Assembly: GCA_000002445.1 (NCBI GenBank)
Contig: CM000208.1
Location: 1,792,001-1,856,000, forward strand
Direction of reading: 5' to 3'
Source: Trypanosoma brucei
Taxonomy: Eukaryota
DNA: 64,000 nt
Position numbers and translations under genes: made by a program. Under the pieces are notes generated by a model. That model did not search any database. It was not told where the DNA came from and saw nothing but the letters and a program-made list of their open reading frames with translations. Below, one piece after another: positions 4,701-51,050 of this stretch (position 1 is its first letter; the number at the start of each line of letters is the position of its first letter).

Positions 4701-5774
4701 ATGGGGAATCTGCTGAGGAACTCTCGTGAGGATAGTGGCAAATAATTACAACACCAGCGATATGTACTATCTTTGCAACGGCCAGAAATGTGTATACACC
4801 CATATAAACAGTGAAAGGGAAGATAGCGGTGAACAACAACAACCAAAATCATTCATTGAAACCGGGGGAAAGCACAAGGAATGAAAAAGGGAATGAATGG
4901 GCATTGACAAATGGTGAGAGCTGCAGCCCCCTCAGATGAATAACAATATTAATGAAGAAGGAGCATGTGTGAAAACAAAAGAAAAAAAAAGAAGAACAGC
5001 ACCCGTAGTATTTGTAATCCGGTACATAAAGAAATGCGCGCACGTAAATAAACAAGTGTATGAACACTTACACTGAAGTTTGAATATCAAAACGTCGTGC
5101 TCGCTGGGCAGACAACTTGATTAATTTGAAACCGTGAAGAATTCAAGCACTTCACAGAAACAACCCGAGAATCCCATTCGTATTAGACATCTTTCCTTCC
5201 TTTAGTCTGAGTCTCTTTGCTAGTTGCGCCCATTCCCCCTTTACGAATGGAAGGATGGCATATAAAACGAATTCTACTATTGACTTCCTTTTTTAAAAAT
5301 TTCTTTCTCACTTTTTTCTACCACTTATCTTTCTTCTACTTGATAATCTGAACGGTTGTACAGGAAACCACGCACCACCTAGGTAGTACACATGTAATGT
5401 TTGGTAATTCTAACATAGAGGGAGGGTGGAAAGCTCAAAAACAAAAAAATGGTCGAAATAATACCAACGGCAATTATTATCCCCCCTCCGTGATAGTTTC
5501 TTTTTTTTTTATTCCTTCGGCTTCCCGTTGGAAAGACCGGAAGAAAGGGGGGGAATCCTCTGAGCCTTTGTTCGAGCGGAATTTGACATCCTCAACATGT
5601 CGTATCTCAATTAACATATGTTTTGCTTACTTTTCTCCTTATTCCTCTGCTCCGCCTTGTTCCGTCCGGATGTTCGCGGTCGGCGACAATTCTATCTCGT
5701 GTCTGCCGGCCTACTTCTGCTGAGGAAAAGGAAGAGGAATGTGGAGGGAAAGAAACAGCCTCCACTACTGTAAA

Positions 5775-8700
5775 CTACATCTGGTGTATCATCGCAAGGG
5801 CAACGCGAAATTCTTCGTATGTCATGCGGCCGTTACCACGTCGCCTCATTCCTTCGAACATCTTTGACATCTTGCCCTTGGACGGAGGCTGTCCAAAGAA
5901 ATCCAACATCTTGATGTCTCTTTCGAAGGCTTCCCCATCGATGGTACTGCGCAAAATGTCGCATATTGAGCTGCGGTTGCCTGCAGACGATGCGGCAACG
6001 CGGGACAAGAGGGAACTGACGTAGCCCTGCTTCCGCAGCTCCTCTTTACACTCGAGTTTGCCGCCATAATGAACCCACAGACGTGGCACATCTTCCGCGG
6101 ACGCGTGCAGAAGACTCTCCCACAACCATCCCTTTAGTGCTGCCTCATCCGAATTTCTGGCGGGATTACCAAAGTAATGCTGTGGGTCGCACACCCAATC
6201 ATCTTCCCTCGATTTCGGTCTTTCGCACTCCACATCGGGCCCATTTCCACTGACCTTTTCATCAAGTCCAATGTGTGCCGGTGCCAGGGGGACAAAAGTC
6301 CCTTCCCTCTCAGTAAGGACGTCAATAAACTGCTTGGTGTCGAGCCCATGCACGAAGCTAAACATGTGACCAGTGTAGTATCCATCGTTTAACTCGTGTC
6401 GCTTACTACCTGTGTAACGAACTAGCGGGTTCTCCGCCCACTCTGACAAGTCGGTGGGGTCATGATCAACGTGACATAACGCACGAACAAGTGGGTCAGG
6501 CGCAAAATCTCCCGTGCCGCACCACAGATCGCGCTCCTTGTACGCTTGCAACGGCCCTTCACTCGCTAACACGACGTTATCGATACGGTTGGGTCTTACT
6601 GGAAGGTCATAATCCTCCCAATCAGAGAAGAGTTCACCGCGGAAAGAAGTGGGAACCGCTCTCTCGGGGTCAGGGTCACCAATGACATCGTGCAGAAACT
6701 TTTTCCAACTGCAGTCCCGCTGGTCCCAGCTCACTATATAACAGTGGACGTCATTGACGCCAGGCTCGCTCTCGATCATGCGTTCGCATTCAAAAGGAAT
6801 AGCGGCGTTGACAACGTAAACATCTTCTGCATGGAACTTCGTTATTTCCATATCGTAGGCAAGATGGACATGCTGCTGTTGCGGGAGGGACCACTTAACG
6901 TAGAGTTGCGAGGGTGTCAACGAGAAGCGGATGAGGGCCTCACGGGCGCCAACAACACGTTGCGACTTCGCGGCCTCTTTCCATTCCTCACCGAACGCGT
7001 CGTAGAAATCGTCCTCTCCACCAGGTGTCACATCCAAATAGCCATTGGTACACGTTGTTGCGTAGAGCATGGGGGAGGAAAACTGTTTTTCGATAAGTGT
7101 CGGGGTCGTTCTCTTGCGAACCTCCCGCTTTATCCGTATACCGTTTTCATTGAGAACCCTCTCCAATAGACCCATCACCTTCACGTTGCCTGCTGCATGA
7201 GGTTTCAAAATGATCATAGCGGTATTCCTGTAGAGCAATGAGGGGCCCGTCTCCGCCGGCTGCGGGGCCCTTGAAGAAACTGTCATGGGCCCTTCGGCTT
7301 CCTCCCCTAGTGTGGAATGTCGCTCCTGCGTTGGCGTGCTAGCGGTGCCATCACGTCCTCCGTCATGAGCACACTCATTAGCGGGGAGTCGCGCCGCTCC
7401 AGTTGGATCAACCTCCTCCTCCTCGCGCTTCAACTCCTCCGACAACGCGGTCATCATAAACATGACACGGGAGGTGTCACATTGGCCAAGATGTTCGAAT
7501 ATGCTCATCTTGATTCCTCCGGACAACACCTCAGGGTTTTCGACCCATGTTTGTAGCACACACTCGAGCACTCCTTTCCGCAAAAGCAAAGAACCAAGAT
7601 AATCTTCTTGAACGGAGTACTTCACACACTTCGTACGCTCTCTAATCGCCTGGATGGCACCTTGACTAACGTGCAGACCGTTACGCAGCTCATCTGGTGG
7701 TTCAGTTATCCCGTAATCTCTCCATCTGCGATTCAGTTGTCCCCGAATGCTCGTTGGCACAGCATCCGCTGGGGACTCGCTCCCAACAACCTCCTCTAAG
7801 AATGTGGGCCAGTCCATCTCACGGGGCTCCCACGACACGACATACCAGTGATGCATCGCCTCAGATGATTCGAGGAAGCATTTCAACCCCGGCATGAGGC
7901 CATTTACGACAAACACGCCATCAAACGGCAACTCAAAAATTTCAAGGCCTGGGCGAACCATCAACCGCCTTGATGCCGCCGTACACTTATAGAAGAGTTG
8001 AACAGGTGTAATGTTACTTAGCGCAACCAGCGCCTCGTACGCGTTTACCAGTACGCCGCCCTCAAGCAGGTTGCACCAACTAACCCCAAAACTCAGCTGC
8101 ACTCTGTCCCTTTCCTTCCGTGACAATTTAATAGTTGAAACATCGCAGTCCGCGTACTCCAGCTCAACAGCGTAAAGGTGCTGAACAAAATCGCGCTCAC
8201 GTAAGGTGGCAGCGCTCACATCACCTTCCTCGTCAATCCGCACCCTCGCGCGCGCAAAGACCGTCTCAACCGTCAAAGCAAAGCCACGGCACAGGGAGCC
8301 GGTCTTCATCAACACAAAAGCAGAGTTACGCGGCGCCTCGGAAAGATGTGCAAAATTCTCCGACTGGAGAAGTTGTAATGCCTCCTTGCTGTTCATCCTG
8401 CGCGCCATATCGAATAGGAATCGGCCGTCGCCACAGGGGGTACGTGGGTTTGTTAGACACCTTCTCATTACGTATGGTGTGATAGACAGTTCATCCATTC
8501 CAAAACGACACACCGCGTCACGTTTGATTCCCAACGAAAGCCACATTTGTTTCAAACGCATCGCCTCCAGAGGACTCGCGGATGCCATCACCGCACCCTC
8601 AAACGAGTCCGGTGGCCGCCGTAGCCCGGCAGCCTTCCACTCCTCACATAGGACCTGCTGCAAGCTTCCCGGTCTGGCTTCCTTAAGGTAAGGATCCCCA

Positions 8701-11700
8701 ATGATGTAATCCATAAAATGAGCGTAATCCATGTCGCTGCTATTCCACGATACTGTCAAAAAATATTTCATGTTGGCCTCACCGCAAAACGTTTCCACAG
8801 TGTGAAGGGCAAACCCGTTAACAACATAAACGTCATGGTCGGGCATCTTACCGACGAAACAGTTTGGGGCTATGCGCGCCAGAGGTTCACACATCAGCCA
8901 CCTATCCCTTAGGTATGCCGCCGAGTAGTCAAACTCCACAGCTGCGTCCACAGCGTTGAACACCTTTCGCGGGTCCCACATCGTTCCAAAAGTGCTGAGG
9001 AAAAGGGACAGGGCCTCCGAGTCGAGTGCATACTGGTAGGGAGATTGTCTGACTGCGTATTTGAATACGCCGTCCTGGACGGCGTGAGCCACGCTGCTTA
9101 GATCCTGATTTCCACCAACCATGCTTCCACTTCCGTCGATCCGTATGTTATAGTGGCGCAGAAAATCGGCGATATAGTTAATCACACGATCACTTGCTTC
9201 CGATGAAGTGCAGGCGGGATTGACCACAATGAAGGCGTAGTTCCGCTTCAAGTTTCCCTCTTCATCCTTCAGGGTTGACGAGGTGTCCCCTTCGGGGCAG
9301 AGAGGCTTCCCTTCCGCCCGCAGCACGCCTTTACATCCGTCAACACACTCTTTTCCAGTGTCCCTTTTCACCTTGTACTCGTGGCTGGACGAGAGCTCGG
9401 GGGGAACCGGCACAAATCTTGGTGCCTGGGGTGAAACGATGTGCATTCCACCAGACGACTGCAGCCCGATTAGTTGCGCTATCAGAAGTGGGTTCTCCGT
9501 GCATAACTTGTCGAACGCATCGCCCATGGACTCCAATGGCTCCTCTCTGTGTCGCACAAGGGGGTTCTCAAGTATCTTACGAAGATACCCGGGGTCTACG
9601 CCACCCATAACCAGTAACCGTCCGAAAACATCCTGTTCCAAGCTTACCCCAAGCCAAGAGACACGATCTGCAAGCCCCTCAACAGGCGTGGCAGAGGCGC
9701 AAAAACCGTTGTCAATACCGTCTGGCTGCCGTTGCAGACCGAGCTCCACCCAAGATTTGTACAGTGTGTGGCGAAGAGATGATTCCTCAGCCTTTTCTGG
9801 CACATCTGTACCGATCACGTACCGGTGGAAATCCCCCCACGTCATTATCTCGCTATCCCATGACACAACGTACCAAGAAACGTGGGAGCCAGCGTACATT
9901 CGCGAACGCAAATAAGGATAGAACCCATTGACAACATAAAGCCCCTCCCTCTCTAAGTAAGCAATGTAAAGGGAAGGAGCCAAGCACACCTTACGTGGTG
10001 CCTCATCCCAATCCTTTAGCAACTGCAAAACGCCAATCCTATCCACCGCCTGCGCTGCATTGATAACCAAATGAAGGTTCATCGCGGTATTCCACGTGAT
10101 ACCGAAGGTAGCATCAAACTCTGCCATCTGTTTTGTGCTGATGGGAATCTCGTGCACTGCGCGTGTCATGGCGTTGCGATAGAGGGTGCACTGCTTGCGG
10201 TCGGCAAGTTCCTTATCAAAGACTTCCGCCATGGGTACGCGACCCGAAGAAATTACCTCAATACGGTGTTGCAACAGTGCTTTTGGGATCCACGCTTCCA
10301 CATGCTTTGTGCATGCGTGCGGTTTGACCCACAGAAATGCGTAATTCATTTTCAAACCGCGCAAAAAACGTGAAGTAATAACCTTCATGCGACGAACCAC
10401 TTCAGAACTCTGTACGTGATACGAAAGATCAGACCTTGTATATTGTGGCAGAAAACATCCGGTTGCGCTCCAGTTCTTCCTTGATGTCCATGACTTCGGA
10501 GGTGGAGACGACGTATCATCAATATTCTTGATCGCCTTTACCCCTTCCTCCTCCTCTTCATCATCCTCATCTTGCGGGTTGCGTTCACCGTCTATGTACG
10601 TCGTAAGCATTGAAAGCGGCACACCTTCCAGTAGGAGGCGCTGTACAAAGTGGTCCTCCGGTAACTGAACGTCCAGCCAAATTTCTCGATCAACGGTACC
10701 CTCCAAAGGACCTTGCGAAACTGAAACGGCAGCAGACCAACGCGAGGCTGGCTTGAATGGCAACCCGAAACCCTTCCACTCATCCGCAAACGTGCGCTGC
10801 AAGCTTCCCTCCGTTGCTTTGTAGGGAATACAGTCGTCACTGAAACCAACCAAGCGCTCAGAGAGGTCGTGCCAAGTCCAAACATCCTCCTTCCACTCCA
10901 CATCAAAGACGTGAGTCACGCTCCCAGGTTTTCCATGGGTCTCCCGAACAAAGGGAACAAAACCATTTAGCACGTATATTTCGTGGTCGGTTAGGTGAAC
11001 CACCCAGCAGTTTGAGTGAAGCTGCACCGGTTGTACTGACTCCCACAGATGAAGGAGCTCCGTTGGTGTTAAACCCAGTACCTCGCAAGCAGAGGTTGCG
11101 CCCATCAACTGTCCACTGATAACACAACCCTCCCACGTATATCCGAATTGTGCATGAAACTGCTTTTTGATCGATGAACTGACGTTTCCGCACATATCAT
11201 CTTTTTTGAAGTCAGCCCAGTGCGCCAGCTTAAGGAATTCATTGCTGCCGAGGTACCGTTTCTCGACGCTTCTGCTCAATAATGTTAGCTCCCGCACCAC
11301 CGCTACATCAGCGGCAGCAAAACAATTCCTCACAGTTTCTATAGTCCACTCGTTGACGGCAAAGGGCCTCAGTACTACCACTGCTCGGTTGACCGATCGT
11401 TCGTTGTACTCTGCAAGAACATGCTGCTCTGCCTCGCACATAAGGTCCACGACTTCAGAAGTTTGTAAGTTCTCTAGAAGGTCAAAAACATGACCGGATC
11501 GCACCCCATCGGCCATTACAACCGCCGGATTCGACCGCCAGCCGTACAGCAGCGCACCTGTCAACCCACGCTCTTGCAGCCGTAGTGTGAGTGGATCGTG
11601 TGTGAGTGGTGATCCGATCCACAGGTAGCGCTCCAGCACTGCCTCCAGCGGACCCGCCGAGGCGTGGACCCCGTTGTTTGTTGTTGTGGGAATGCCCTGC

Positions 11701-28000: not shown

Positions 28001-28476
28001 TGCTCGTAATCCCGCTGCACCTCGTAACTCTTGAAGAATGCCATACGGGCTTTGCGAATTTCTACCACCTGTTGGCGGCTTCTGTGTTGACCTACAAGGG
28101 ATCCAGTCCTCGATTGCTCCGCATTGTTAATGTTACTCGTGTTGCCTGATTGGTTCGTTCCCCACGACCGCCCGTTGTTTTCGTTGGGCGTTTGGTTCTG
28201 TCGCCGTGGGGGCTGGTGCTCGGTACACGACGACTCAGAGCCCCCAGCTGTCGTGCTGAATGAAACCTGCGAGGACCGACACGCTCCGCGCATTGAACCC
28301 TCCAATACCTCTTCATTTCCACTGCGCGCGTCTTCTGCACCGCCGTAGTAAACCCGATCCCTTTCCATTGCACGGCGGCCTGAATTTGACACCTTCTCAA
28401 GTGCTGCCAGAGCGGCTTCCCACTTCCTGAGGTGCTCCTCAGTGGAGGCACGGGCATTAATTTGGCCGTTCCCCAT
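25009..28476 (-). CDS. Hypothetical protein, 1155 aa, no recognisable domain (begins MGNGQ...)
   Basis: Uninterrupted 3.5-kb ORF on the cluster strand with non-repetitive composition. No motif could be assigned by eye. Confidence 0.55.
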   Translation of the reverse strand: MGNGQINARASTEEHLRKWEAALAALEKVSNSGRRAMERDRVYYGGAEDARSGNEEVLEGSMRGACRSSQVSFSTTAGGSESSCTEHQPPRRQNQTPNENNGRSWGTNQSGNTSNINNAEQSRTGSLVGQHRSRQQVVEIRKARMAFFKSYEVQRDYEHKAIMECGHFGAAAVALSYLLGGARGCRDRKKCVTMEDIFFAVHLPLHYLHSGVQTLQVMSDILREFIDVDNRFKNEYGLSVVHFDISPVVGQVELGRNEVGDRQTCMQLHEFTKAIANDSEEQIQAVRIVNYDPYVLQQETFVDNFVDGDDDVSALADSIRVGLRDQERQYSKNNNGVYAVIVEVRCVVELMVTLAEGIVDDQLHVRLFEVPAAALFKAMTVPLENERARGFMRIFRKDSVPVMSHDEVQSMFSPELAGGNVLGTTSMGTHASAISGHTSPHIIAVAWAMHLLGGDRASAHGHGNGLPVSDIVRTMKFPAEVLIDSTLPLGEVFKYAREYIRLTERNYDVSIYPILTNTSREDAVPTISVFELESILTDVKNANKDPDAPEHVMVIMYNANVAHNVLYVSNTPQWCVLSGYDEESQVVSLIDAHPKKFMKLWTCSLERLHRAMTSNGYLIFSKRTAASTHVGLSHDETWCDSLPLGHESQAPRVGALRRVDPTVQRYLALLRDQDALGVTRREVMRTLCFPSLPLSPTMIALTLTELGCPTTFEDVIVALPFEISSLMLRYFTLESMAVCLTTYVEHVGLNVSVKAYHTDRRNGNKARVTVEEFEQIMEECLADRGKALVMLFNTNEIEVFGDSRPFGSTGLVVGYNKATGGVTVMDTNPNRYFRTWSVCLHTLFRAMHDADTVHRRCGFLKVSHCTTLPAPSFPLEYSRETPLRMLPLRNIFHVSPSPHFQALSCAFTQLGFFYSPEEIFYEAYLQTMNRQRRRGTQAFAWRDVDVSLSVINKQIDTVFLAQICRMFLESRNSTRGSSDSQIDEHNDEEWLVHVEVMEDVTEGNIDSILRDATRRENNNTVLLLNYDTAIAHDVVGFGRSAALIKAYNPDTKSVLLWEAEHTVFGMFWTVDVPKFIEIGNLMDKGRSPYGLVKFEKVKRKLSGRRTLMKHLDAHEGGSPSKGFDDVPSGPMALRRNREMMTRFLFSPQESPDRRR

Positions 28477-29552
28477 CTGTCAGATTTCACCCTAAACCGT
28501 CACTATTCTACACCCCGTTTCCGGAAACTCGCTTGATCACTACCTTTAGCCCGTAGTGGTAGAGACACTGCTTCAATAATAAGTTTCGAAGCCACACCCT
28601 TTCCTTCTTACTTGAATACAGCGTACAAGAGTACATATAAATGGAGGTAGACAAATATAGGCATGGTGACATACAAATCAAAAAACTGACCTGTACGAAG
28701 CGACGTACAGGAGTAAAGGTGGTGACGGTGAGGGGAAACAACGAAGAGGAGGAAAAACATCGAAAAAAAAAAATTCTGCCCAACGGTTGAAGCAAACAAA
28801 TCTCTTAACGTGCACTGCTCCTCTTGTTATAGGCAAAATTGCAGAAATTTTGCTCATGTGTGGCGGGGTTCCGCGCACAGCGCTGCTGAATAACAAGATT
28901 TGACGCCGGCGGCATAAATATCACAAGCAAAGCCAAATAGAACCCGTGGGTGTTTTCACGGTCCCCAGAGGGATTTATATCTTTTATTTTTTTTTTTTAG
29001 TCTCCGTTATTGCTAATACTCATCCTTCCCTTTTCTCATTTTTCAACCTAAAAAATTAGAAAAGGAAGCGGGACATCTACGTATTTATTTATTTTTTTTT
29101 ACAAGTTAAAGAAAAACGAGGAGAACCAAAAGGAGGAGAAAAACAAGAAACAACGACAACGACAACAACAATCGGAGACGTGGCCGTTGTCCACTTCCCA
29201 TTGTGGGTTACACTAATCGGGGAATAACAACCAAGATTTAGCGAAAGAAGAAAAATGTGTGTTTTTCCATCAGCAAACAAAAACAGAAATCAGCTAACAG
29301 GAGGAGGCCGCGTATAGCGTTCTCCCCTCACTCCTTTCCCTCTCGTTTATTTTGCATTTTCATTTCTTTTCACTTTCTAAACAAGGGAGGAACAGCGCCG
29401 AGAAGGTGGAGAGACCACAACAAGCAAAAAAAAAAAAAAAGACGAATGTGGACCTTTGAAGAATGGAACTAAACCCGTTACCAATTGTTTTTTTTTCCTC
29501 TTCCTCTCTCCTCTTTGTCTTCCGCATAGCTTGAATTATTATTATTATTGTT

Positions 29553-29575
29553 ATATATATATATATATATATATA
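29553..29575. repeat. (TA)n dinucleotide microsatellite (~12 units)
   Basis: atatatatatatatatatatata is directly visible and is preceded by (ATT)n-like ttattattattattg. Confidence 0.9.
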
Positions 29576-29800
29576 GCCCCCTATATTCTTTTCTCTCCAC
29601 TTCTTCTTCCTTTTGCTTTTCTTTCGGTAATGTTGTGTCACGTGGCCCAAAGGGAGCGTATGGAAGGGAAGGGAGAAGCCTAAATCAAAATGTCAAGTGG
29701 TTGAGCGTAGAGCAAAAGTTGTCACATGACATCATGACGAAACAACGAAGGAAACAATAACGTTACTAGTGACAAAAGTGGGTGCGCCAAAAGAAGACAA

Positions 29801-29826
29801 GGAGGAGGAGGAGGAGGAGGAGGAAG
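29801..29826. repeat. (GGA)8 trinucleotide repeat followed by a long A/G-only tract (to ~29925)
   Basis: ggaggaggaggaggaggaggaggaag, then aaaaaaaaaagcgagagaaaaaaaaaagagaagagaaaagaaaag... This creates the spurious plus-strand RRRRRRRR/KKEKRK ORF 29782..30285. Confidence 0.9.
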
Positions 29827-30451
29827 AACCCAAAGAAGGTAGACAAGTATAATAAAAAAAAAAGCGAGAGAAAAAAAAAAGAGAAGAGAAAAGAAAAGAA
29901 AAAAGAAGAGAGGCGCATGGCATATAAAATACCTGCAGTATCCCGCCCCCGCCCCACACACACACACACACCACGTGTTTTTAAAGCATTCCCTTCATTA
30001 CAACTACTGTTTATACCTCCTTTTTATTTACCCACACCCTTCACCACAAACAATTGCGCGCCCCTCGCCTTTTTTACTCACAGCTCCCGTCCAACATCAA
30101 GCGCCCATCCCACAAATAAAGAGAGAGAGAGGGAGAGAGAAAAAGGGGGAAAGAAAAAGGGTAGAAAACACACACAAACATTAGCATATAAATGCATCAT
30201 TATAAACGCCTCCATCATCGCCTGGAAACTTCAGCATTCACAGGCTTCCATGAACAAATCGGCAACACCCGAACAGCACACATGAACGTCCAGTTTCTCT
30301 TTTTTTAGCATCTCTCCTCCCTCACCCCTTTTTTTTTCTTCTACGCATCCACTTGCATATAAAAATATAAATATACACGAGTTTTATACCTTGCAGCTTC
30401 CCAGCTCCCTCTTTTTTTTTTTATTTGTTCTTTAGATCATCTTCGGTGTGT

Positions 30452-30463
30452 GGGGGGGGGGGG
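30452..30463. repeat. Homopolymeric G12 tract within a GT-rich stretch (30440-30600)
   Basis: ggtgtgtGGGGGGGGGGGGcttttcttttggctgtagtggcgccgttg...gtttgtttttttttctgtat. Confidence 0.85.
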
Positions 30464-30983
30464 CTTTTCTTTTGGCTGTAGTGGCGCCGTTGCCCCGCTA
30501 ATCCGCACACCTTCAGGTTGTTTGTAGCTCATTTATTTACTTTATTTTTACATTTCGTTCTTAGCGTTTGTTTTTTTTTCTGTATATAAAACCGAGAAGA
30601 AAAGAGCCAACTAGACCAAAACGAAGCAAAAAAAAGGAGGAGGAATGTGAACTCCGTTTGTTTTCTTTCGGTTTGTTTCTTCTAATTGTTTTATTTTCTC
30701 TTGAATTCGCATCAAGTTAGAAATACAGGTTAATTACAAAAAAAAAAACCGGAACAAACCAAACGGAGAGGGGGAAAAGGCCACTAGAAGTGAGCTTCAT
30801 GGGGGAGAGAAAGAAGAGGAGAGGCCAACAAAAAACGAAGCGAAAAAAAAAATGTTGATGAGAACCCCTAACCGTACTTTTGTTGTTATTATTATTATTA
30901 TTTTTTTCCCACCCCTTCCAGTCTTCCCCCCTGTCCCTTTCCTCTTCCTCCTCCAAAAAGTAATCAAACCATCACTGTGGTTC

Positions 30984-31271
30984 TCATCGCTTTTTGCATT
31001 TCCCATCATTGGGATCCACTAAACCCAACATAACATTTGATAAAATGGAAGCTCCCGAGTTGCTGCTTTTGGAATCATTGCGGTTACGGCGTCCCGGCAT
31101 GCATTGGCGTTGAAGTTCGTTGATTTCCTTCTCAATGGGCTCAGTGATGGCGGCAATATCTTCCAATTCCTTCTGTAACCTTTCCACCTCTTTTGTCGCT
31201 TGTGCAATTTCATCCCCATTGCGTTTTTTGAGGGTCTCCAACTGTTGGCGGAGCTCCGCCACAGTCGACAT
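30984..31271 (-). CDS. Small (~95 aa) coiled-coil protein candidate
   Basis: ORF track gives 30984..31451. The first 60 codons (FFPLFCYNFHFLVFPFFIFF...) translate a T-rich spacer. A non-repetitive heptad-like sequence starts at the in-frame ATG near 31269-31272: MSTVAELRQQLETLKKRNGDEIAQATKEVERLQKELEDIAAITEPIEKEINELQRQ. Confidence 0.35.
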   Translation of the reverse strand: MSTVAELRQQLETLKKRNGDEIAQATKEVERLQKELEDIAAITEPIEKEINELQRQCMPGRRNRNDSKSSNSGASILSNVMLGLVDPNDGKCKKR

Positions 31272-32131
31272 CGCTCTCCGGTGGGGAAAAAAAATTTGAA
31301 AAAAAAAAAAGATCCTTTCAAATGTGAATATACGCACAACCGGTGCTGGTACCGTTGTGGTGAAGAAAATAAAGAAAGGGAAGACGAGAAAATGGAAATT
31401 GTAACAAAACAAAGGAAAGAAAACCTGATGGCTCGAATACTTCCAAAGCAACTAGACGGTCACACGAAGGAGTTGTGCATGCCTTCACTTCGGGTATACA
31501 CACACATACACAAAATAAAAGAAACGAGAGCGAAGAACGCACGGACAAATTCAGAGGGAAAGTTAAGAGATGAACTTCAACTGATCGTGCGACGTGCAAC
31601 GGATATCGACTGCTGCTTCAAAATAATAAAAAAAATAAAAATAACGGGATGTTACATTAGGCATGCGCACAAGAGAATGAGGAAGTCACCAAAACACCTC
31701 TTTAAAGTTGTTGAACGCATACAACGGAGGGAAATCACGTTTGCACAAATGTGCTGCTTTCATCCACCATTCGCGTTGAAATCTCGCAGTGTTTACTTGC
31801 GTTAGGAGCTACAAATTAAATGGAACGCCCATTTGTAAGACATCTAACGCCCAGAAACACTGCTTTGAGTAGTGCCCACAGTAATACGCCCACGTATAGC
31901 GTGTGTGGAAAGGGGGGAATGGGAGAGAGAGAGAGAGAACAAAAAGGAGGGAAAAGAAAAAAGGGAGTTGCGGCCGGCCCGGGGAGCTCCAGTGAGATTC
32001 AGAGAATTCAGTGGGTGCCGTAGTCACATCGGTGAGTTAAACGCATGTCATCTCACGCCGCTTTGGTGGTGCCACTCCTATCCCAACATGAATTCAACAT
32101 GCGTACGAAGCACACCGCGTAGCAGACGTTT

Positions 32132-32159
32132 GGGTTAGGGTTAGGGTTAGGGTTAGGGG
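32132..32159 (+). repeat. Interstitial telomere-type hexamer repeat, (TTAGGG)~4.5 / GGGTTA units
   Basis: The plus strand reads tttgGGTTAGGGTTAGGGTTAGGGTTAGGGGa at about 32129-32160. This is the trypanosomatid/vertebrate telomeric hexamer, located internally between genes. Confidence 0.9.
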
Positions 32160-33108
32160 ACAGAAACTCATCAGAATATTACTAAATAGGAGGATCTGTA
32201 TCCATATGAACACATATATTCGTGTAAAAATGGAAAGGGTAAGAGGAGGGGAATAAATTAAGTGGTTATCGCAATCACGAAGGAAAGGCGGGCTCAGCTG
32301 AAAATAATCTCGGGTTGATGTACTAAGCAACCGCCAGTATTGTAAGGTAACAAGCGGTACCGGAAATACAACCCTTGTCTGCCATTACCACCACCGCAAC
32401 CGTAAAGAACGGCACCTATACACACATGCCCAACCACGCGTATTCACATATACAGATGCGTACGGTTAAAGGGGCAATTCCGAACCCCATCGAAACAAAA
32501 GGAATGTGAGGGCCGACGAATTTGTACATGGTGACTAAACATTAACCGCAGCGGCTACAATATTGCCGTCATCTGAGTTTTATTACCATAGTCCCTGTCT
32601 TACCTGACACTTAAATAACTTAGCTTCACTCCCGACTTCTGAATCATCGGAGGAGACGTGTCGTTCTAAAAAACAACGATGGAGAAAAGAACGTCTAGAG
32701 CTCTTGCGTTAAAGCAGGCAGAAACATTACAAGCGATCCTTTTCTAAGAAAAGTATTTTCTGGAAGTAATGTGAGAGAGTAGGTAATACAAGTTCAAGAA
32801 AAGATGACAAGCACCCTCGAATATTGTCCAAGAGAAGCTTAAGGTATGTCAACAGGCGTGGATGGCGTATCTCCTTCTTTCGCACAGCAACTAACGTAGC
32901 CCGGCAACCGATCGGAGGACGCAGGAGCTACCCATGTGGAAAAGAAGCGAAACGTAACAAAACAAGAAAAAGCGAAGTGCTTGGTGCAGAGTAAGAATAA
33001 AAACAAAAAATAAATGATAATCAAATGCATGTGGCCAAACAGGACGTCCACAATGTGTCAACAAATTGACATCAAACCTCCACTTCAGCGAAGAAGTACC
33101 AACATCAA

Positions 33109-35592
33109 CTAGTTTTTCTGACAGTTGTACGCCTTCCAGCACGCACCGCAGTAAAGACCATCATCCGCAGATTTGTCGGATGCCTCCCACAGATCAGTGC
33201 CCGATGCACCGCATTCGCTACACGTCCCTTGACCTGCATGATTCCCACGCCGTACAGCATTCTTCCGTTTTTTTGAACCCTTGGACTTTTTGCGCTGCAC
33301 AGTCTCAGCACATCGGGTCTCCACCACAACCGGCGACTGCACTGTGATATTTTCCTCACTACCGGAAACTAAAAGGTCGTCAAGTAAAGTGCCATTCCGT
33401 ACAATTGATGGGATGGCATCCGCAACCCTCTCTAAGATCTCCTCCCGCGTCGTGCATCCCCGCGCCCGCGCGGCGGATACAGCTTCAGCGTGCATCAGAA
33501 AATTGTCGCGATCCTCCGCGGTTCGAAAGGCCCTCCCGCGTGCCAAAAAGTACACGCCAAGTAAACCAGCAGGAATATTAGCATCGGATACGCCGAGCGG
33601 ACCCGCTACCAACAATGCGTCATCGATGCTATGCATTTTTGAGCAGAGTAGGTGCCGCCGCGGTGCTTCACAGCTCTCCACATGGTCAGGGGGTTCTCCT
33701 TCTTGATTATTTGTTACTCCTTCAGCATCATCATCCCCCTCTTTGCTTTTATTGTTGAGAGTGGAGGCCATGTCAAGTAAGGTCTCCCAATTGTGGCTTG
33801 CTTCGTAGATAGCAACACAGTCTGCGCCTGCGCTATCTATCAACAACTGCCGTAACGCCGAAACAGTCACCGGTCGCAAATTGCGTAACTCCCCCTGCAC
33901 AGAAAGCCGGGTCACGTAGGCAGGCATCGTTTCCTCTGCAAACTTCTGCTCGTCAACGAGCAGCTGCTGAGGTCTGCCTGCTACAATTGACGCCAGCGCA
34001 CGCATAAACTGCACCTTCACAAAGGAAGCTTTGTCAGGGGATAGGTGACGGCCGAGGTTAAAGTTATCTTCGTACGGATCATCAATGCACAGACGGTACC
34101 AGACGCGATCGCGAAGGGGGCCGCACTTCACTTCATTAGCCTCCACCCAGCCAAGGGAATCAGGTGTTACCGGCGGCCCCCCTCCAGGGACCCGTAGCGT
34201 CACCACAACTTTGTCCCACCGAATCCTTGTATAGTACAAAAAAAACAAGGGAATCAAACCACCAAGCGCACCCCGCAACATCGTGAGTTCTGGAGACTTT
34301 AAAACATCACTAGGCCGTTCACCACCATCCCCATCATCGCGCAAAAGGGGTAAGTACGACATTTTCTGTTGTGACAAGTCTGGAATAGGCTCCACATCAG
34401 CCGGTCTAACGAACTTTACGAGCCCGTTCTCCAACAAGAAGTGCACCCACAAAATGGACATAGCGTAGGAAGTAAGATACCCATTCTTTGCATTGTTTAT
34501 ACCATACAACTTGCTCCATTTCTTCAGAAACAAATAACCAGTCCGTACAAAAGGATCCTGTTGAAAATACTTGCGAAGAAACAAGCTATTTCTCACTCCT
34601 TGTGCTCTACAACTTAAATCGAAGTCAAGTGAAAACATTTCAGGCAATTGTGAGCCAGTCTTCCATGAAACTTCCATGTCGCGTGGTCCACACATGGCCG
34701 AATTGCAGAAGAACTTTACTGCCTTCAAACTATCCTTAAAGTGAAACGTTACCGTATCACTGTCTTTTCGCTCAACCGTAGAGCTAATGGCCGCCTCGAC
34801 TAACATGCGGGGCGGAGAAGAAAACTCCTTACTGTTCGACCACACAACGCTGTACGTGTCGTGCTCACCATGTGAACGCAGTGGGACCCGAACCTTTTGA
34901 ACACGCCGCACAACGGGGACGCGGGTCCGCACAAGGGGCTCCAGCTCTCCAAAAAAGAAACCCGCCTTCCTCAGCGCCGCGGTGAGCCGAAGTATAACTT
35001 TTTTCTCGTCCTCGGGTGGCCATTTACCCTTCTTCATATCCTGCAGACCAATTGCGGTGAAATCAGCATCACTCACCCCGTCCCAACAACCACACGACAC
35101 GCAACTTCCAAAAGGAAATAACACTAAGTTGCGAACAAAACAAGAAATGACTTGGCTCATTTGAGAGAACGCACGCTCAATTACATCGAACGTCTTCCTG
35201 CCCATGTCAAGGGTTGCCGCGCTTTCCAACACAAAATTGCCACACGAGACAATGTGTCCAGAAGGAATGCATCCATAATGGAGCAGATTATCTTTACTCG
35301 CTAGAATCTCTCTGCACCAGAGAGAGAGCGCGGCATGGTGCACCTGAAAGTGTTCTTGGATTTGCTCCTCATCCCGGCTTTCTATCATTTTTGCACAAAG
35401 GTCACAACGGACACTCTGAGAGTTCCGACTCGTCAATTTTTCTTTTATTTGTTTTGTTGCGCCGTCTCCCTCACTATGTATGAGACAACCATCCAATAAC
35501 TTCTGCTCTGCCTCCTTCCACTCTTCATGAACACCACTGCTGTACACCACACCCGGAACTACAGTCGGAGCTACAGGCACCGATGTGAACAT
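33109..35592 (-). CDS. Non-canonical nucleotidyltransferase of the Cid1 / terminal uridylyltransferase (TUTase) / ncPAP family, with an N-terminal C2H2 zinc finger and a C-terminal CxxC...CxxC zinc finger. Possibly a TUT3-like enzyme
   Basis: Pol-beta-type catalytic motif FPFGSCVSCGCWDGVSDADFTAIGL (GS...DxD). The N-terminal C2H2 finger is CDLCAKMIESRDEEQIQEHFQVHH. The C-terminal finger is CSECGASGTDLWEASDKSADDGLYCGACWKAYNC. The ORF track starts at 35778, but the first 62 codons read through an upstream poly-T spacer (MIFFFKKRYHVFLK...FFSSLSG). The first non-repetitive in-frame ATG (MFTSVPVAP...) is at approx 35590-35592. Confidence 0.8.
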   Translation of the reverse strand: MFTSVPVAPTVVPGVVYSSGVHEEWKEAEQKLLDGCLIHSEGDGATKQIKEKLTSRNSQSVRCDLCAKMIESRDEEQIQEHFQVHHAALSLWCREILASKDNLLHYGCIPSGHIVSCGNFVLESAATLDMGRKTFDVIERAFSQMSQVISCFVRNLVLFPFGSCVSCGCWDGVSDADFTAIGLQDMKKGKWPPEDEKKVILRLTAALRKAGFFFGELEPLVRTRVPVVRRVQKVRVPLRSHGEHDTYSVVWSNSKEFSSPPRMLVEAAISSTVERKDSDTVTFHFKDSLKAVKFFCNSAMCGPRDMEVSWKTGSQLPEMFSLDFDLSCRAQGVRNSLFLRKYFQQDPFVRTGYLFLKKWSKLYGINNAKNGYLTSYAMSILWVHFLLENGLVKFVRPADVEPIPDLSQQKMSYLPLLRDDGDGGERPSDVLKSPELTMLRGALGGLIPLFFLYYTRIRWDKVVVTLRVPGGGPPVTPDSLGWVEANEVKCGPLRDRVWYRLCIDDPYEDNFNLGRHLSPDKASFVKVQFMRALASIVAGRPQQLLVDEQKFAEETMPAYVTRLSVQGELRNLRPVTVSALRQLLIDSAGADCVAIYEASHNWETLLDMASTLNNKSKEGDDDAEGVTNNQEGEPPDHVESCEAPRRHLLCSKMHSIDDALLVAGPLGVSDANIPAGLLGVYFLARGRAFRTAEDRDNFLMHAEAVSAARARGCTTREEILERVADAIPSIVRNGTLLDDLLVSGSEENITVQSPVVVETRCAETVQRKKSKGSKKRKNAVRRGNHAGQGTCSECGASGTDLWEASDKSADDGLYCGACWKAYNCQKN

Positions 35593-36516
35593 GCAAGCTA
35601 AGGTACTTCTCGACCTTTGCGTTGGGCAGCTATCACCCGACAGAGAAGAAAAAAAAATACAACGAATTATAAAAATTACTTTGATGAAAGAGCGGAAAAA
35701 AAAAAAAGAGCACGGCATGAGGCGAATTGAGGGAGCTTTCAAGAACACGTGGTATCGTTTTTTAAAAAAAAATATCATATCCTGGTAAATGGGCTATGAT
35801 ACACAATTGAGTACAGATACAAAGGTGGTACATATACCTATCTTTCCCACTTAAAATCATTTCTTCCTTGCTTGCCACCACCAAAAGGCAAAACAAAGAG
35901 GCAACAGTAAACCACCTCCATCTTATTATAATCCACTTGCCCTGTGCCCTACTCAGCACCCCTTTAGGGATCACAGCAATAAGTGGCTGCGGATCACCTC
36001 CCTTCTCATGTACAGTCACATATCACACACATATACACACATACATACATACATTTGCATAATGAGATTCAATGATGCACGATCGCACAAAACTACACGG
36101 AATAAAGGAATATCCACAGTATGGAGAAAAATTAGTAGTAAACAGTAGCAGCGCCAGAAGTGGTACCGTTAGTAGCGGTCATGGAAAAAAAAAACAAGAC
36201 CCTGGAAAATGAGAAAAGAAGGGGGAAAAAATAGGTTAAAACACTTCAGAAAAAAATAGAATGTGGAACAAAGAAACAAAATCGCGAAGGCTAAAGACAA
36301 AATAACCAGGAAAATAATAAAAGACAGGGAAACGGGAAAATGTGAGCACTGAAGTGAAAACAAAGCGCACAACAAAGGTCAACGGAAGTTGTTGTTGAAA
36401 TGCCATGCGTCCCCACTTTCCCCTTCCACCAGCTACAACCCACGCACAAACACCTCTCCATCCTCCCTCCTTCCGCACACATGGTCGATTTCGCAAAAAC
36501 AGAGGGAACTTTTCCT

Positions 36517-37566: not shown

Positions 37567-37980
37567 TTACTTCTTCTTTGTCTGCATCTTGCCCTTCGCC
37601 TTGCCACGAATCTTCTTGTTTCGGTTGCGGCGTTCCTTCACTGACTTACGAGCCGGAAGCTTCTTCTTACCCATACCCAAGCGAGCCTTACGGTAGTTGG
37701 GCTCAATGCGCTTCATGGCAGCAAGGTCATCATAGATAAGACCGAAACCAGTCGTTTTCCCGCCACCGAATTTCGTCTTGAAGCCAAAGACGGAAATTTG
37801 GTTCTCGTCAGCGACCTTGTAGAGCGACGCGAGGCGGTTGCGAATGAGTTTCGCGGGAACAGTGCCGCACCACCCGGGGTGGTTCACCTCAACAACGAAT
37901 TGCTTGCGGTTCAGCAGTTTGTTCACCTTGAACTGCGAGGTTCGCACCGTCACCTCTGCCTTCTTCTTCTGGAAGACCAT
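37567..37980 (-). CDS. RPS24: 40S ribosomal protein S24 (eS24), copy A
   Basis: 137 aa: MVFQKKKAEVTVRTSQFKVNKLLNRKQFVVEVNHPGWCGTVPAKLIRNRLASLYKVADENQISVFGFKTKFGGGKTTGFGLIYDDLAAMKRIEPNYRKARLGMGKKKLPARKSVKERRNRNKKIRGKAKG. This is characteristic of eS24 (FGF.T.FGGGK(T/S)TGFG.IYD). Confidence 0.92.
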   Translation of the reverse strand: MVFQKKKAEVTVRTSQFKVNKLLNRKQFVVEVNHPGWCGTVPAKLIRNRLASLYKVADENQISVFGFKTKFGGGKTTGFGLIYDDLAAMKRIEPNYRKARLGMGKKKLPARKSVKERRNRNKKIRGKAKGKMQTKKK

Positions 37981-38309: not shown

Positions 38310-38723
38310 TTACTTCTTCTTTGTCTGCATCTTGCCCTTCGCCTTGCCACGAATCTTCTTGTTTCGGTTGCGGCGTTCCTTCACTGACTTACGAGCCGGA
38401 AGCTTCTTCTTACCCATACCCAGGCGAGCCTTACGGTAGTTGGGCTCAATGCGCTTCATGGCAGCAAGGTCATCATAGATAAGACCGAAACCAGTCGTTT
38501 TCCCGCCACCGAATTTCGTCTTGAAGCCAAAGACGGAAATTTGGTTCTCGTCAGCGACCTTGTAGAGCGACGCGAGGCGGTTGCGAATGAGTTTCGCGGG
38601 AACAGTGCCGCACCACCCGGGGTGGTTCACCTCAACAACGAATTGCTTGCGGTTCAGCAGTTTGTTCACCTTGAACTGCGAGGTTCGCACCGTCACCTCC
38701 GCCTTCTTCTTCTGGAAGACCAT
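38310..38723 (-). CDS. RPS24: 40S ribosomal protein S24 (eS24), copy B (tandem duplicate)
   Basis: The protein is identical to copy A. The ORF track lists 38310..38726 (138 aa, MMVFQ...), but codon 38724-38726 is GTG on the coding strand, so the true ATG is at 38721-38723. Copy B differs from copy A by two synonymous substitutions only (TTG/CTG Leu; GCA/GCG Ala). Confidence 0.92.
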   Translation of the reverse strand: MVFQKKKAEVTVRTSQFKVNKLLNRKQFVVEVNHPGWCGTVPAKLIRNRLASLYKVADENQISVFGFKTKFGGGKTTGFGLIYDDLAAMKRIEPNYRKARLGMGKKKLPARKSVKERRNRNKKIRGKAKGKMQTKKK

Positions 38724-44508: not shown

Positions 44509-45424
44509 TACTGACTACGGTCCTGCACAGGGCAGAAATACAAAAACTCGCGCACCCTTCTCCGTCCCGTCTATGAATCCTGTGTATCTTCCCAGCAAGC
44601 GATCACAAAACGTAAAAAGAAAGGGGAAAAAATAGAGGCAAGTGACACACAATTTGCATTTTTCACTTCACCAAACCCAACGTAGAAGACAACTCCAAAA
44701 TGCGCAACGGAAGAAACCTGAATGTGCCCGCTTACACCACACGAGATGGCAGCTTCCGCATCCTCTTCCCCTCCGGGTTAGATGCTTGTGGAGAGAATGG
44801 AAAGGAAAGAACCGGCAGGAATTAAATAGCTACCCCTAATAACTTTGTATTCTGCGGCGCTCGGGTTGTACGTGGTAAAAAGATAAAACAAGTGCGTTGC
44901 AAACAATGGCAACGCAGAAAAGGGTCACAAAGAAGAGGTGAACTCCGGTATTCGCTTGCCCCATAAACTCAAACAAACAAACAAGAAATAAAAGGAGATG
45001 GGGGAAACAGCGATAACAATGTTAGTGACATAAGTAAATGGTGCAATAGAGGTCGACAATAAACCGAAAACCAGTGACAGAACTAATGAGGACCATTATA
45101 TTGGAGTAAAACAGGAAGTATAAAGTGGTAGTATACGAAAAGCGGGGTGAAGAGAACTAAAGCAATGGTAGTCAGACACCTGGCCGCAATTTATAAAGTG
45201 AGAAAGTGGAAAACGGTGCATGTTATGCTCTGGAACCCCACTACTTCGGACGTCTACGAAGAGACGAGCAGCCACGAAGAACAATAGCGATAACCTTACC
45301 AAAGAAGGTGCAACATGGAAGCAATTGCCTCCTCACATAGCAGACCATACAATGATGTTTGCCGCGGATACCGCGGCAAACCATAGTACACAAGCACGTT
45401 GGAAAAAAAACGTTGGAAGTTTCC

Positions 45425-50044: not shown

Positions 50045-50789
50045 CAGTTAGCTTTACACGCCTTTACTTGCACATCCTTGGGAAATTTAGACAGGAAGAG
50101 AAACGTGAGGATAACAGCAGACGCACAGTACATGCACCGGGGGGTTGGTGAGAAGCACCTGCAATGGAGCACCAGCAAGCACAGTCTCCGCTATATCCTT
50201 CGTGAAAAATACGAGCAGCACGCACATTAACTTTCAAACACGTTCATTTGCTATACTACTGGTGGTTCAAGAGCAGCATACCAGACCTCGCAACGGCGTG
50301 CCGCAGGTTGACGTCCCAGGCGTAGAAGGAGAAAAATTACTCGGCGTGGAGCAGATCAAAAGGAGGAGCCACAGCCCTGTTTTTCGCCCAAATGAGGTAT
50401 TCAATGGCCCCTTATGCGGAATGTTGCTCTTACTCCTCCCTTCACCACTCGGACGTTTACGTGCAGGATGGGGGTGTTCTACAAGCCGTCCCCACTAGTG
50501 AATGCCCCCTTTTCCCCTTCCCCCGGAGAGCAGCAGCAGAACAGTAACCTCAAACTGCCGTTCCAGCCCCCGCTGGTACCATTAAAGTGGAGCGTACAGG
50601 TGTCATACGATCCCCTCTCCTTTGGTGCTACCACCTACGCCTGACGTCCATTTGAAGCAGGACATGCTCTGCAAAATGCTGGATGCGTCTCCATGGCGCA
50701 ACGCATGCGTATCGGGTGCCATTATGAGAGGTCAGTGCCACCGGTACCCGTCGCTGCCACTTTTCCCCACCGGCCCTACCCTCGAACGG

Positions 50790-51050
50790 CTATAGGGGTG
50801 TAATACCCCACTCTGTTCGGTGCTTCCGCATTGCCTCACAAAAGGTCTTTGTGTACACCGATTCGTAAACCTCACCAGCAACTTCGCTCAGAGCCTGCCG
50901 GTAGGCTTCATTGCGCAACGCTTTTACTCGCAGCTCGTAATCCAGTGATGCCATCAGCAGTTCCTGGCCGGCACCGTCACCGTCACTGTCACTATTGCTA
51001 CCACAAGGTTGCGGCGTAATACCTAGCATTTTCTTTCCTCCTGTCTTCAC
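50790..51050 (-). CDS. Possible small protein (86 aa)
   Basis: Non-repetitive ORF on the cluster strand in a 1.6-kb gap between larger genes. No domain recognised. Confidence 0.2.
   Translation of the reverse strand: MKTGGKKMLGITPQPCGSNSDSDGDGAGQELLMASLDYELRVKALRNEAYRQALSEVAGEVYESVYTKTFCEAMRKHRTEWGITPL

Follow-up and report, generated by a model that had tools for sequence, protein, structure and literature searches.

A gene-poor tract on chromosome 10 of Trypanosoma brucei as a probable precursor locus of three small nucleolar RNAs of the H/ACA-like type

Organization of the tract

This report concerns a gene-poor, repeat-dense tract of 4,632 nt on chromosome 10 of Trypanosoma brucei TREU927, and in particular three short hairpins within it that resemble small nucleolar RNAs (snoRNAs). 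The tract lies in a 64-kb stretch of the plus strand of that chromosome (Tb927_10_v4, positions 1,792,001-1,856,000), referred to here as the window; a window coordinate plus 1,792,000 gives the chromosome 10 coordinate. An earlier note on the window had bounded the tract by the start of a 1155-amino-acid (aa) open reading frame (ORF) at 28476 and the end of an 889-aa ORF at 33109, and both bounds hold. These two ORFs are on the minus strand, which carries every ORF of at least 220 aa in the window. The 889-aa nucleotidyltransferase is TUT3, Tb927.10.7310, also designated Tb10.6k15.3370 (an identity drawn from PMC8608314 and from Pfam PAP_assoc/MTPAP matches). Its coding sequence, 1827778..1825109 on the minus strand, corresponds to window 35778..33109, and both of its ends fit the 1,792,000 offset. 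The 1155-aa gene is Tb10.6k15.3400. Because its poly(A) site at 1816721 and its 288-nt 3' untranslated region (UTR) place the stop codon at window 25009, and because an AG acceptor lies exactly upstream of a published splice site, the offset can be regarded as confirmed.

The proteins flanking the tract have counterparts on chromosome 10 of T. b. gambiense and T. equiperdum. Orthologous loci were compared from these two and from T. cruzi, T. vivax, T. melophagium, T. conorhini, Leishmania sp. and Leptomonas pyrrhocoris, together with an environmental contig that codes for a homologue of the 1155-aa protein with 38% identity. A 95-aa ORF proved to be the only conserved ORF of the tract, in agreement with its earlier listing as the sole coding candidate. 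The sub-gaps on either side of it (2,507 and 1,837 nt) are the longest among the 21 intergenic gaps of the window, the remainder of which measure 99-1,661 nt, and the tract holds about six times as much simple repeat as other spacers, so that its description as gene-poor and repeat-dense was accurate. The principal features, in the order in which they are transcribed, are as follows.

32768..33108, minus strand: 3' UTR of TUT3, 341 nt (Kolev 2010, Table S1)
31486..32759, minus strand: Tb10.NT.77, a transcript with spliced leader and poly(A) tail (Kolev 2010, Table S7)
32305..32374, minus strand: e0, candidate H/ACA-like (AGA-box) snoRNA, 70 nt (synteny, pairing, covariance model)
32128..32159, minus strand: (CCCTAA)4 on the transcribed strand, an interstitial telomeric repeat (Tandem Repeats Finder (TRF) or direct reading, cross-species comparison)
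32048..32129, minus strand: e1, candidate H/ACA-like snoRNA, 82 nt (conserved blocks, pairing, covariance model)
31779..31863, minus strand: e2, candidate H/ACA-like snoRNA, 85 nt (compensatory stem I, leave-one-out covariance model)
30984..31271, minus strand: gene for a conserved 95-aa coiled-coil protein (syntenic orthologues)
28477..30983, minus strand: low-complexity spacer of 2.5 kb (repeat density, cross-species comparison)

A separate non-coding transcript downstream of TUT3

The TUT3 transcript spans 1827678..1824768 (Kolev 2010, PMC2936537, Table S1), which places the end of its mRNA at window 32768. The same study lists Tb10.NT.77 as a "novel transcript" running from 1824759 to 1823486 (1,273 nt, 1.37 RNAs per cell; Table S7). 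It begins nine bases past the TUT3 mRNA 3' end and on the same strand, and an AG dinucleotide preceded by a pyrimidine-rich tract lies directly upstream of 32759. The longest ORF of Tb10.NT.77 that starts with ATG is 37 aa, and comparison with the other species by tblastx revealed no conserved ORF. The transcript is outside the lists that Kolev 2010 (PMC2936537) gives for conserved ORFs, for peptide support and for transcripts with no ORF of at least 25 aa.

In T. brucei, snoRNAs come from long precursors with both a spliced leader and a poly(A) tail (Kolev 2010, PMC2936537), and both clusters made up of H/ACA genes only and solitary H/ACA genes exist that are processed from such transcripts (Chikne 2016, PMC4855143). 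We interpret Tb10.NT.77 as a precursor or host RNA of this kind.

Three hairpins conserved across the genus

Searching the TUT3-to-95-aa spacer against the other trypanosomes with blastn gave short matches, collinear and on the same strand, including two blocks, of 19 and 22 nt, in which T. brucei and T. conorhini are 100% identical. These matches resolve into three elements, e0, e1 and e2, all inside Tb10.NT.77, which occur once per species with order and orientation kept and have syntenic orthologues in T. vivax, T. cruzi, T. conorhini and T. melophagium. Nothing in the 1.8-kb spacer except the arms of the elements aligns to these four species; outside the three hairpins, Tb10.NT.77 is unconserved beyond the T. 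brucei group. All three are oriented as the neighbouring genes are and show no tandem repetition. The e1 blocks AAACGTCTGCTACGCGGTG and GCACCACCAAAGCGGCGTGAGA are identical or nearly so across the five Trypanosoma species, and the 5' arm and pocket of each element are kept between orthologues while upper stem and loop vary. Every one of the 15 orthologues has an AGA trinucleotide after one unpaired G, which is replaced by A in e2 of T. melophagium. Over their combined 237 nt the three elements show no variable site between TREU927, T. equiperdum and T. b. gambiense, compared with 2-5 per 100 nt in most flanks.

Covariance models (with filters off as well) and regular expressions detected no e1 or e2 orthologue at the Leishmania and Leptomonas loci. 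A weak e0-like candidate (23.6 bits) was found in Leptomonas, upstream of the 94-aa gene at 8124-8194 of the L. pyrrhocoris locus. No TUT3 homologue was detected at the syntenic locus of Leishmania sp. or L. pyrrhocoris (tblastn, E<=0.01). As a separate observation, 2.3-3.4 kb without a called gene lie between a SPRY-domain gene and the 92/94-aa gene at the Leishmania (5454-8875) and Leptomonas (6699-9010) loci.

The earlier note had considered an exceptionally long pair of 3' and 5' UTRs. At its fullest, this reading would make the tract UTR only, a very long 3' UTR of TUT3 and/or the 95-aa gene plus the 5' UTR of the 1155-aa gene, with no further RNAs. Several-kilobase 3' UTRs are known in T. 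brucei, and none of the listed novel transcripts lies within 28477-30983 (Kolev 2010, PMC2936537); for that segment a long UTR pair is possible. On the TUT3 side the idea fails, since the TUT3 3' UTR is 341 nt long and a separate spliced-leader and poly(A) RNA follows at once, so that the published transcript map already contradicts it for 31486-32759. The three genus-wide elements also show hairpin covariation, which trypanosome UTR sequence would not be expected to have, and other UTR sequence is unalignable between these species. We therefore regard a tract of UTRs alone as highly improbable.

Two hypothetical ORFs of 101 and 106 aa are recorded for T. b. gambiense in the TUT3-to-95-aa spacer, the second of them antisense across e1 and e2.

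5414-5719 (plus strand) of the T. b. gambiense locus, window about 32727-33031, minus strand: 101-aa ORF
6308-6628 (minus strand) of the T. b. gambiense locus, window about 31820-32138, plus strand: 106-aa ORF

Neither is conserved outside the T. brucei group among the species compared, and on this ground both are probably spurious calls over the snoRNA precursor.

Structure of the hairpins and their proposed assignment to the H/ACA-like class

The three elements share one architecture: a single hairpin in which a basal stem of 5-6 bp leads to an internal loop whose two strands are invariant, then to a second stem and a variable apex. This shape was recovered in all five species under both constrained and unconstrained folding. 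The published consensus for trypanosomatid H/ACA-like RNAs comprises a stem I of 5-8 bp, 1-3 unpaired nt before the AGA and a distance of 13-16 nt, a 5' pocket of 5-11 nt, a perfect stem II of 3-7 bp by the pocket and a poorly conserved apex, with the AGA box 3 nt from the mature 3' end (PMC2613932). For the pocket-to-AGA distance, counted from the top of the 3' pocket strand and covering 3' pocket, stem I and spacer, we obtained 14 nt for e1, 15 nt for e2 and 15-16 nt for e0; in all 15 orthologues it falls within 14-16 nt. All of e0, e1 and e2 agree with the published geometry in stem I, distance, 5' pocket and a stem II of 3-7 bp. Stem I of e0 is GGGUUG/CAACCC (6 bp), its 5' pocket is UAUUUCC (7 nt), and its 3' pocket UUAGUACA is followed by G-AGA-UUA. 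For e1, stem I is ACGUC/GGCGU (5 bp) and both pockets are 8 nt long. The e2 element has a 6-bp stem I, a 5' pocket of 8-10 nt, and the invariant pockets UUCUGGG and CAAGU.

To quantify pairing, each structure was named explicitly, base pairs were counted per cell, and slid structures served as controls. Paired cells amounted to 98.2% for e1 (slid controls 16-60%), with six one-sided changes that keep pairing; to 93.8% for e0 (23-52%), where three stem I pairs changed on both sides; and, in the four species other than T. brucei, to 85.4% for e2 (25-52%), where three pairs show two-sided changes. Stem I of e2, GCAGUG/CACUGC in T. brucei, is GCGGCA/UGCCGC in both T. cruzi and T. conorhini, a difference of three compensatory pairs. 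The covariance models built for e0 (R2) and e1 (R1) each detected one copy per locus, at 74-85 and 80-94 bits respectively, and nothing else in the window. The e2 model R3, built without T. brucei, found window 31863-31779 on the minus strand (52 bits, E 1.2e-9) with all stem pairs formed, and this was its sole significant match in 133 kb.

Could the hairpins instead be cis-acting RNA or DNA elements, such as processing or stability signals or protein-binding sites, or AGA-like RNAs independent of CBF5? AGA-like RNAs of the same shape found by Psiscan were not destabilised by CBF5 knock-down (PMC2613932), and no target was found for e0 or e2 in partial large subunit (LSU) ribosomal RNA (rRNA) sequences. 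However, the pocket strands and the G/A-AGA box are invariant, the stems co-vary and the apex is free, which is the pattern expected of guide RNAs; the pocket-to-box spacing stays at 14-16 nt in 15 of 15 orthologues, an LSU rRNA site fits the pocket of e1 with the U correctly placed (see below), and the elements sit in an RNA of their own with spliced leader and poly(A) tail, as in known snoRNA precursors. Non-repeated "solitary" snoRNA genes and H/ACA-only clusters are documented (Chikne 2016, PMC4855143). We consider non-snoRNA hairpins quite unlikely, and continue with e0, e1 and e2 as candidate H/ACA-like snoRNAs.

A T. brucei C/D snoRNA just 3' of e1 (core at about 31997-32060) was entertained and rejected, being unconserved in other species and at chance level in Rfam. 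The underlying segment, 31997-32093 on the minus strand, is C/D-box-like (GUGAG-AUGA...CUGA..CUGA-AUCUCAC) with a terminal stem of 5-6 bp and an snR67 match of 12.7 bits. That match, against a threshold of 55, is the only one in Rfam at E<=10 within 31740-32420; other Rfam matches at E<=10 are sub-threshold, resemble plant or insect microRNAs (miRNAs) and fall on A/T-rich hairpins.

A predicted rRNA target for e1

The one-sided changes in e1 led us to suggest that only ACCAA of the 3' strand and UGCUACGC of the 5' strand pair with a substrate, and the target derived from the pocket is UUGGU-U-N-GCGUAGCA. A scan of metagenome contigs with TTGGTTNGCGTAGCA returned more than 120 matches, most of them unrelated singletons. 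Three shared a common context, ...CCUCUAGUGCAGAUC UUGGUUGGCGUAGCA AAGAUC..., and the contigs carrying them are independent eukaryotic LSU rRNA genes (Rfam, 757-1,098 bits) with the match at one and the same conserved position. The duplex of e1 with this site has 5 + 8 bp around the U and no G-U pair. From these matches e1 is predicted to guide pseudouridylation of LSU rRNA at UUGGU[U]GGCGUAGCA, for which they give support that falls short of decisive. The site is presumably the segment GCAGAUCUUGGUGGUAGUAGCAAAUAUUC of yeast 25S rRNA, just 5' of the GTPase-associated centre.

A telomeric repeat beside e1

What had been described as (TTAGGG)4.5 reads CCCC(TAACCC)4 on the transcribed strand. This repeat stops 2-3 nt before stem I of e1, although the feature coordinates overlap by 2 nt, and no other telomeric repeat of at least two units occurs in the 64-kb window. 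T. equiperdum carries it too, as does T. b. gambiense with one substitution, and the syntenic spacer lacks it in T. vivax, T. cruzi, T. conorhini and T. melophagium. Because of this distribution, comparison of the sequences identifies the repeat as an insertion specific to the T. brucei group, placed in the e0-e1 spacer directly 5' of e1.

In vertebrates, telomerase RNA combines a template with an H/ACA domain, and (CCCUAA)4 adjoining an H/ACA-like hairpin recalls that layout. Like TbTER (TbTR), Tb10.NT.77 is a trans-spliced non-coding RNA that contains CCCUAACCCUA, the TbTER template sequence. We rejected it as a telomerase RNA: TbTER is encoded on chromosome 11, between Tb927.11.830 and Tb927.11.840, and the repeat here, of four units, is restricted to the T. 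brucei group. It is conceivable that Tb10.NT.77 is more than a snoRNA precursor, with a 5'-extended e1 or the host RNA pairing with the telomeric G-overhang or with telomeric repeat-containing RNA (TERRA), or with the DNA repeat recruiting telomere-repeat-binding proteins or base J. Nothing in support of a function for the repeat was found in this analysis, and we hold such a role to be extremely improbable.

A suggested transcription start or termination zone

A further suggestion had been an internal zone of RNA polymerase II (Pol II) initiation or termination; in this reading, the tract would be a head-to-tail region driven by G-tract or GT-rich elements. In its favour are the unusual length of the spacer, a G12 run flanked by GT (30446-30463), many homopolymer tracts and the tendency of base J peaks within transcription units to fall in spacers. 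The tract thus shares with the internal Pol II start regions known in T. brucei (Siegel 2009; Kolev 2010; Wedel 2017, PMC5579346) a long spacer in a unidirectional cluster and G and T homopolymer tracts. It differs from them in several respects. The site is unlisted: a single minus-strand unit, Tb10.6k15.3160-3540, which starts "next to snRNA", spans the whole window in the map of 5'-triphosphate RNA, and the same table marks other units "Internal" and none here (Kolev 2010, PMC2936537, Table S14). GT-rich promoter elements depend on direction: they function from the coding strand and lose activity on reversal (Wedel 2017, PMC5579346). Here the G12/GT element occupies the non-coding strand. 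Nor is there any GT excess on the coding strand, where G+T of the tract is at the mean of the window (z between -1 and +0.65), and the ratio of coding to non-coding GT-only 10-mers is 2.3, below the 3.1 of the window. Such 10-mers are in greater excess on the non-coding strand, a result that plain low complexity would lead one to expect. Finally, ARAGORN and Rfam detected no transfer RNA (tRNA) or small nuclear RNA (snRNA) gene in the window. The suggestion is thus unsupported, and we judge an internal start or termination region to be very unlikely.

The 95-aa gene and the 2.5-kb spacer

The 95-aa protein is 100% identical to its T. equiperdum / T. brucei counterpart, and syntenic orthologues of 92-95 aa are found in T. 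vivax, T. cruzi, T. conorhini, T. melophagium, Leishmania and Leptomonas. All share an MST..EL start and a C-terminal LVD.DD motif, while Pfam gave only sub-threshold coiled-coil matches. This conservation identifies the ORF as a real gene.

Repeat density is very unequal between the two sides of this gene. Exact tandem repeats cover 5.4% of the tract and 0.9% of other intergenic DNA in the window, and runs of purines only or pyrimidines only, 15 nt or longer, cover 9.7% and 3.3%, respectively. Nearly all of this excess is in 28477-30983 (7.1% tandem repeats and 14.4% such runs, the highest in the window), and 31272-33108 is near normal complexity (3.0% and 3.3%). The microsatellites that had been listed are all present by TRF and direct reading.

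29535-29554: (ATT)6.7
29552-29575: (TA)12
29800-29824: (AGG)8.3
29955-29971: (CA)8.5
30120-30140: (AG)n
30452-30463: G12
32135-32158: (TTAGGG)4

A reported run of more than 100 nt of pure A/G has to be corrected: the longest strict A/G run is 48 nt (29866-29913), within a 118-nt stretch (29796-29913) that is purine-rich with interruptions.

No T. brucei sequence of 28477-30983 aligns to any other species compared. In T. brucei, the slot between the 95-aa and 1155-aa genes takes up 2.5 kb; its length is 1.29 kb in T. vivax and between 0.7 and 0.85 kb in Leishmaniinae. It is 2.3-2.5 kb long in T. cruzi, T. conorhini and T. melophagium, where a Peptidase_S28 gene fills it. The comparison identifies the spacer as fast-evolving and expanded in the T. 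brucei lineage. It contains many pyrimidine tracts on the sense strand, and presumably combines the 3' UTR of the 95-aa gene with the polypyrimidine tract and 5' UTR of the 1155-aa gene.

It is possible in principle, and compatible with the interpretation of the tract as an RNA-gene locus, that the spacer is what remains of a decayed Peptidase_S28 gene. Synteny is the same and the interval is of nearly equal length (2.5 kb compared with 2.3-2.5 kb with the gene), and the T. melophagium copy, which is split over three frames, implies that the gene can decay at this locus. However, tblastn and a six-frame S28 profile search gave best E values of about 8-10 with negative scores in the interval, and no remnant was found in the T. 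brucei or T. vivax slot. T. vivax and Leishmaniinae have no S28 gene here and short spacers, and a single gain in non-salivarian trypanosomes is at least as parsimonious. We rejected an S28 pseudogene in the spacer after these searches, a 4.6-bit match overlapping e2 being noise, and rate a decayed remnant as unlikely. The T. melophagium copy itself, at about 8012-9404 of its locus, matches profile positions 22-118, 123-155 and 147-483 in different frames, and is either a decaying pseudogene or an assembly error.

A 117-nt imperfect inverted repeat, capable of forming a long hairpin on either strand, occupies 30652-30768 in the presumed 3' UTR of the 95-aa gene. Its folding energy is -35.3 kcal/mol (z = -4.95), and none of 200 shuffled sequences was as stable. 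It is the source of sub-threshold Rfam matches to miRNA families (MIR7504, 33 bits against 83). Logan contig L010 has the hairpin as well, and other species showed none; that contig carries neither spliced-leader nor poly(A) sequence and is therefore uninformative on transcript ends.

Neighbouring genes

The published TUT3 trans-splice site, at window 35678, falls within the 5' end of the 889-aa ORF (35592-35778), and TUT3 is among the genes with a mis-annotated start codon in Kolev 2010 (PMC2936537). Records for T. b. gambiense and T. equiperdum give an 827-aa TUT3 protein. Because the splice site is inside the ORF and relatives carry the 827-aa call, the first 62 residues, which are of low complexity, are probably not translated. 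Two other novel transcripts of Kolev 2010 lie in the window on the minus strand, Tb10.NT.78 (44695-44967, 272 nt) and Tb10.NT.79 (50201-51049, 848 nt). The 137-aa ribosomal protein S24e is encoded by two tandem copies with identical N-termini (37567-37980 and 38310-38723, minus strand). This pair fills an otherwise apparent 1.9-kb gap, and is common to T. cruzi, T. melophagium, Leishmania and Leptomonas.

Discussion

Taken together, these results make it probable, in our judgement strongly so, that the tract is an ordinary RNA-gene locus, made up of the TUT3 3' UTR, a snoRNA-like precursor, the 95-aa gene and a repeat spacer specific to T. brucei. Hidden RNA genes such as a snoRNA cluster had been among the earlier suggestions, and this one is borne out by the separate spliced-leader and poly(A) transcript Tb10.NT.77 with its three conserved H/ACA-like hairpins at 31.5-32.8 kb. 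One Pol II polycistronic unit, read from right to left, would cover the tract. Downstream of the short TUT3 3' UTR, trans-splicing at 32759 and polyadenylation at 31486 would yield the 1.27-kb non-coding Tb10.NT.77, the probable precursor of the single-hairpin AGA-box RNAs e0, e1 and e2. By analogy with the workings of the family, CBF5, NHP2, NOP10 and GAR1 would bind each hairpin, exonucleases would remove the flanks, including the T. brucei-specific (CCCUAA)4 insert, and the mature 70-85-nt RNAs would select an rRNA uridine through their internal pockets for conversion to pseudouridine. For e1, the predicted site is UUGGU[U]GGCGUAGCA in LSU rRNA. Next along the unit would come the gene for the conserved 95-aa protein, and last the 2.5 kb of fast-evolving simple-repeat spacer, probably 3' UTR of that gene, which appears to have expanded in the T. 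brucei lineage. The transcript boundaries in this account are established in the literature, and the comparison itself shows the hairpins to be conserved, structured and covarying, the 95-aa protein to be conserved and the length of the spacer to be specific to the lineage; that mature small RNAs are made and bound by H/ACA proteins, that e1 has the proposed target and that the spacer is UTR we infer.

Several points weigh against this account. Structural rules discriminate weakly by themselves, about 1.46 million T. brucei sites fitting the crude Psiscan model (PMC2613932), and the case therefore rests on conservation and covariation, which are drawn from only five species. Within these five, e1 shows one-sided changes and no double compensatory pair, and stem I of T. 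vivax e2 has just 3 good pairs. The Rfam scan that had been proposed as a check detected no snoRNA family at e0, e1 or e2, and there was no Rfam 15 match at gathering threshold in the whole window. The target of e1 was seen in environmental LSU rRNA genes of unknown taxon rather than in T. brucei rRNA, and the TTGGTTNGCGTAGCA scan, made without a shuffled-pattern control, also gave more than 100 chance matches elsewhere. For e0 and e2 no convincing target (at least 10 bp) appeared in three partial LSU contigs, a scan confined to LSU rRNA short of its 3' third. Accumulation of 70-85-nt RNAs and their dependence on CBF5 are predictions, and the UTR status of 28477-30983 is presumptive. None of the three elements was matched to a named TB10Cs snoRNA in literature full texts or in the supplements of Chikne 2016, Rajan 2023, Chikne 2019 and Psiscan, and it may well be that TB10Cs names for them already exist.

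The locus is of a known kind, because snoRNA precursors with spliced leader and poly(A) tail, solitary genes and H/ACA-only clusters are all documented. Its elements resemble trypanosomatid H/ACA-like snoRNAs (Liang 2005; PMC2613932; Michaeli 2012, PMC3273796; PMC4855143) in forming a single hairpin of 70-85 nt with a pocket and an AGA box 14-16 nt away, in lying in gene-sense orientation without tandem repetition on a spliced-leader and poly(A) precursor, and in keeping guide strands between T. brucei and T. cruzi while the stems change in a compensatory manner. They differ in having no Rfam family, in that only e1 has a predicted target, and in the telomeric insert by e1. Chikne 2016 (PMC4855143) describes 10 genes in 5 H/ACA-only clusters, among which a three-gene cluster here is not obviously accommodated. 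Tb10.NT.77 likewise resembles the long non-coding RNAs that host snoRNAs in T. brucei (the precursors of Kolev 2010), being of low abundance, trans-spliced, polyadenylated and non-coding, and carrying snoRNA-like sequence within a polycistron. It differs from host RNAs such as "grumpy" in that no function of the host RNA itself is indicated. "Grumpy", a long non-coding RNA, was reportedly presented by Guegan in 2022 as a snoRNA host of T. brucei.

An odd gap in the genome of a well-studied parasite can thus be explained with neither a new promoter nor a new terminator, and two T. b. gambiense ORF annotations over the cluster are flagged as probably spurious. Single-hairpin H/ACA-like RNAs overlooked by Rfam scans can be found by comparing syntenic spacers of T. 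brucei and T. cruzi. If e0, e1 and e2 prove to be uncatalogued, they would add three genus-wide pseudouridine guides, one of them with a predicted site in LSU rRNA.

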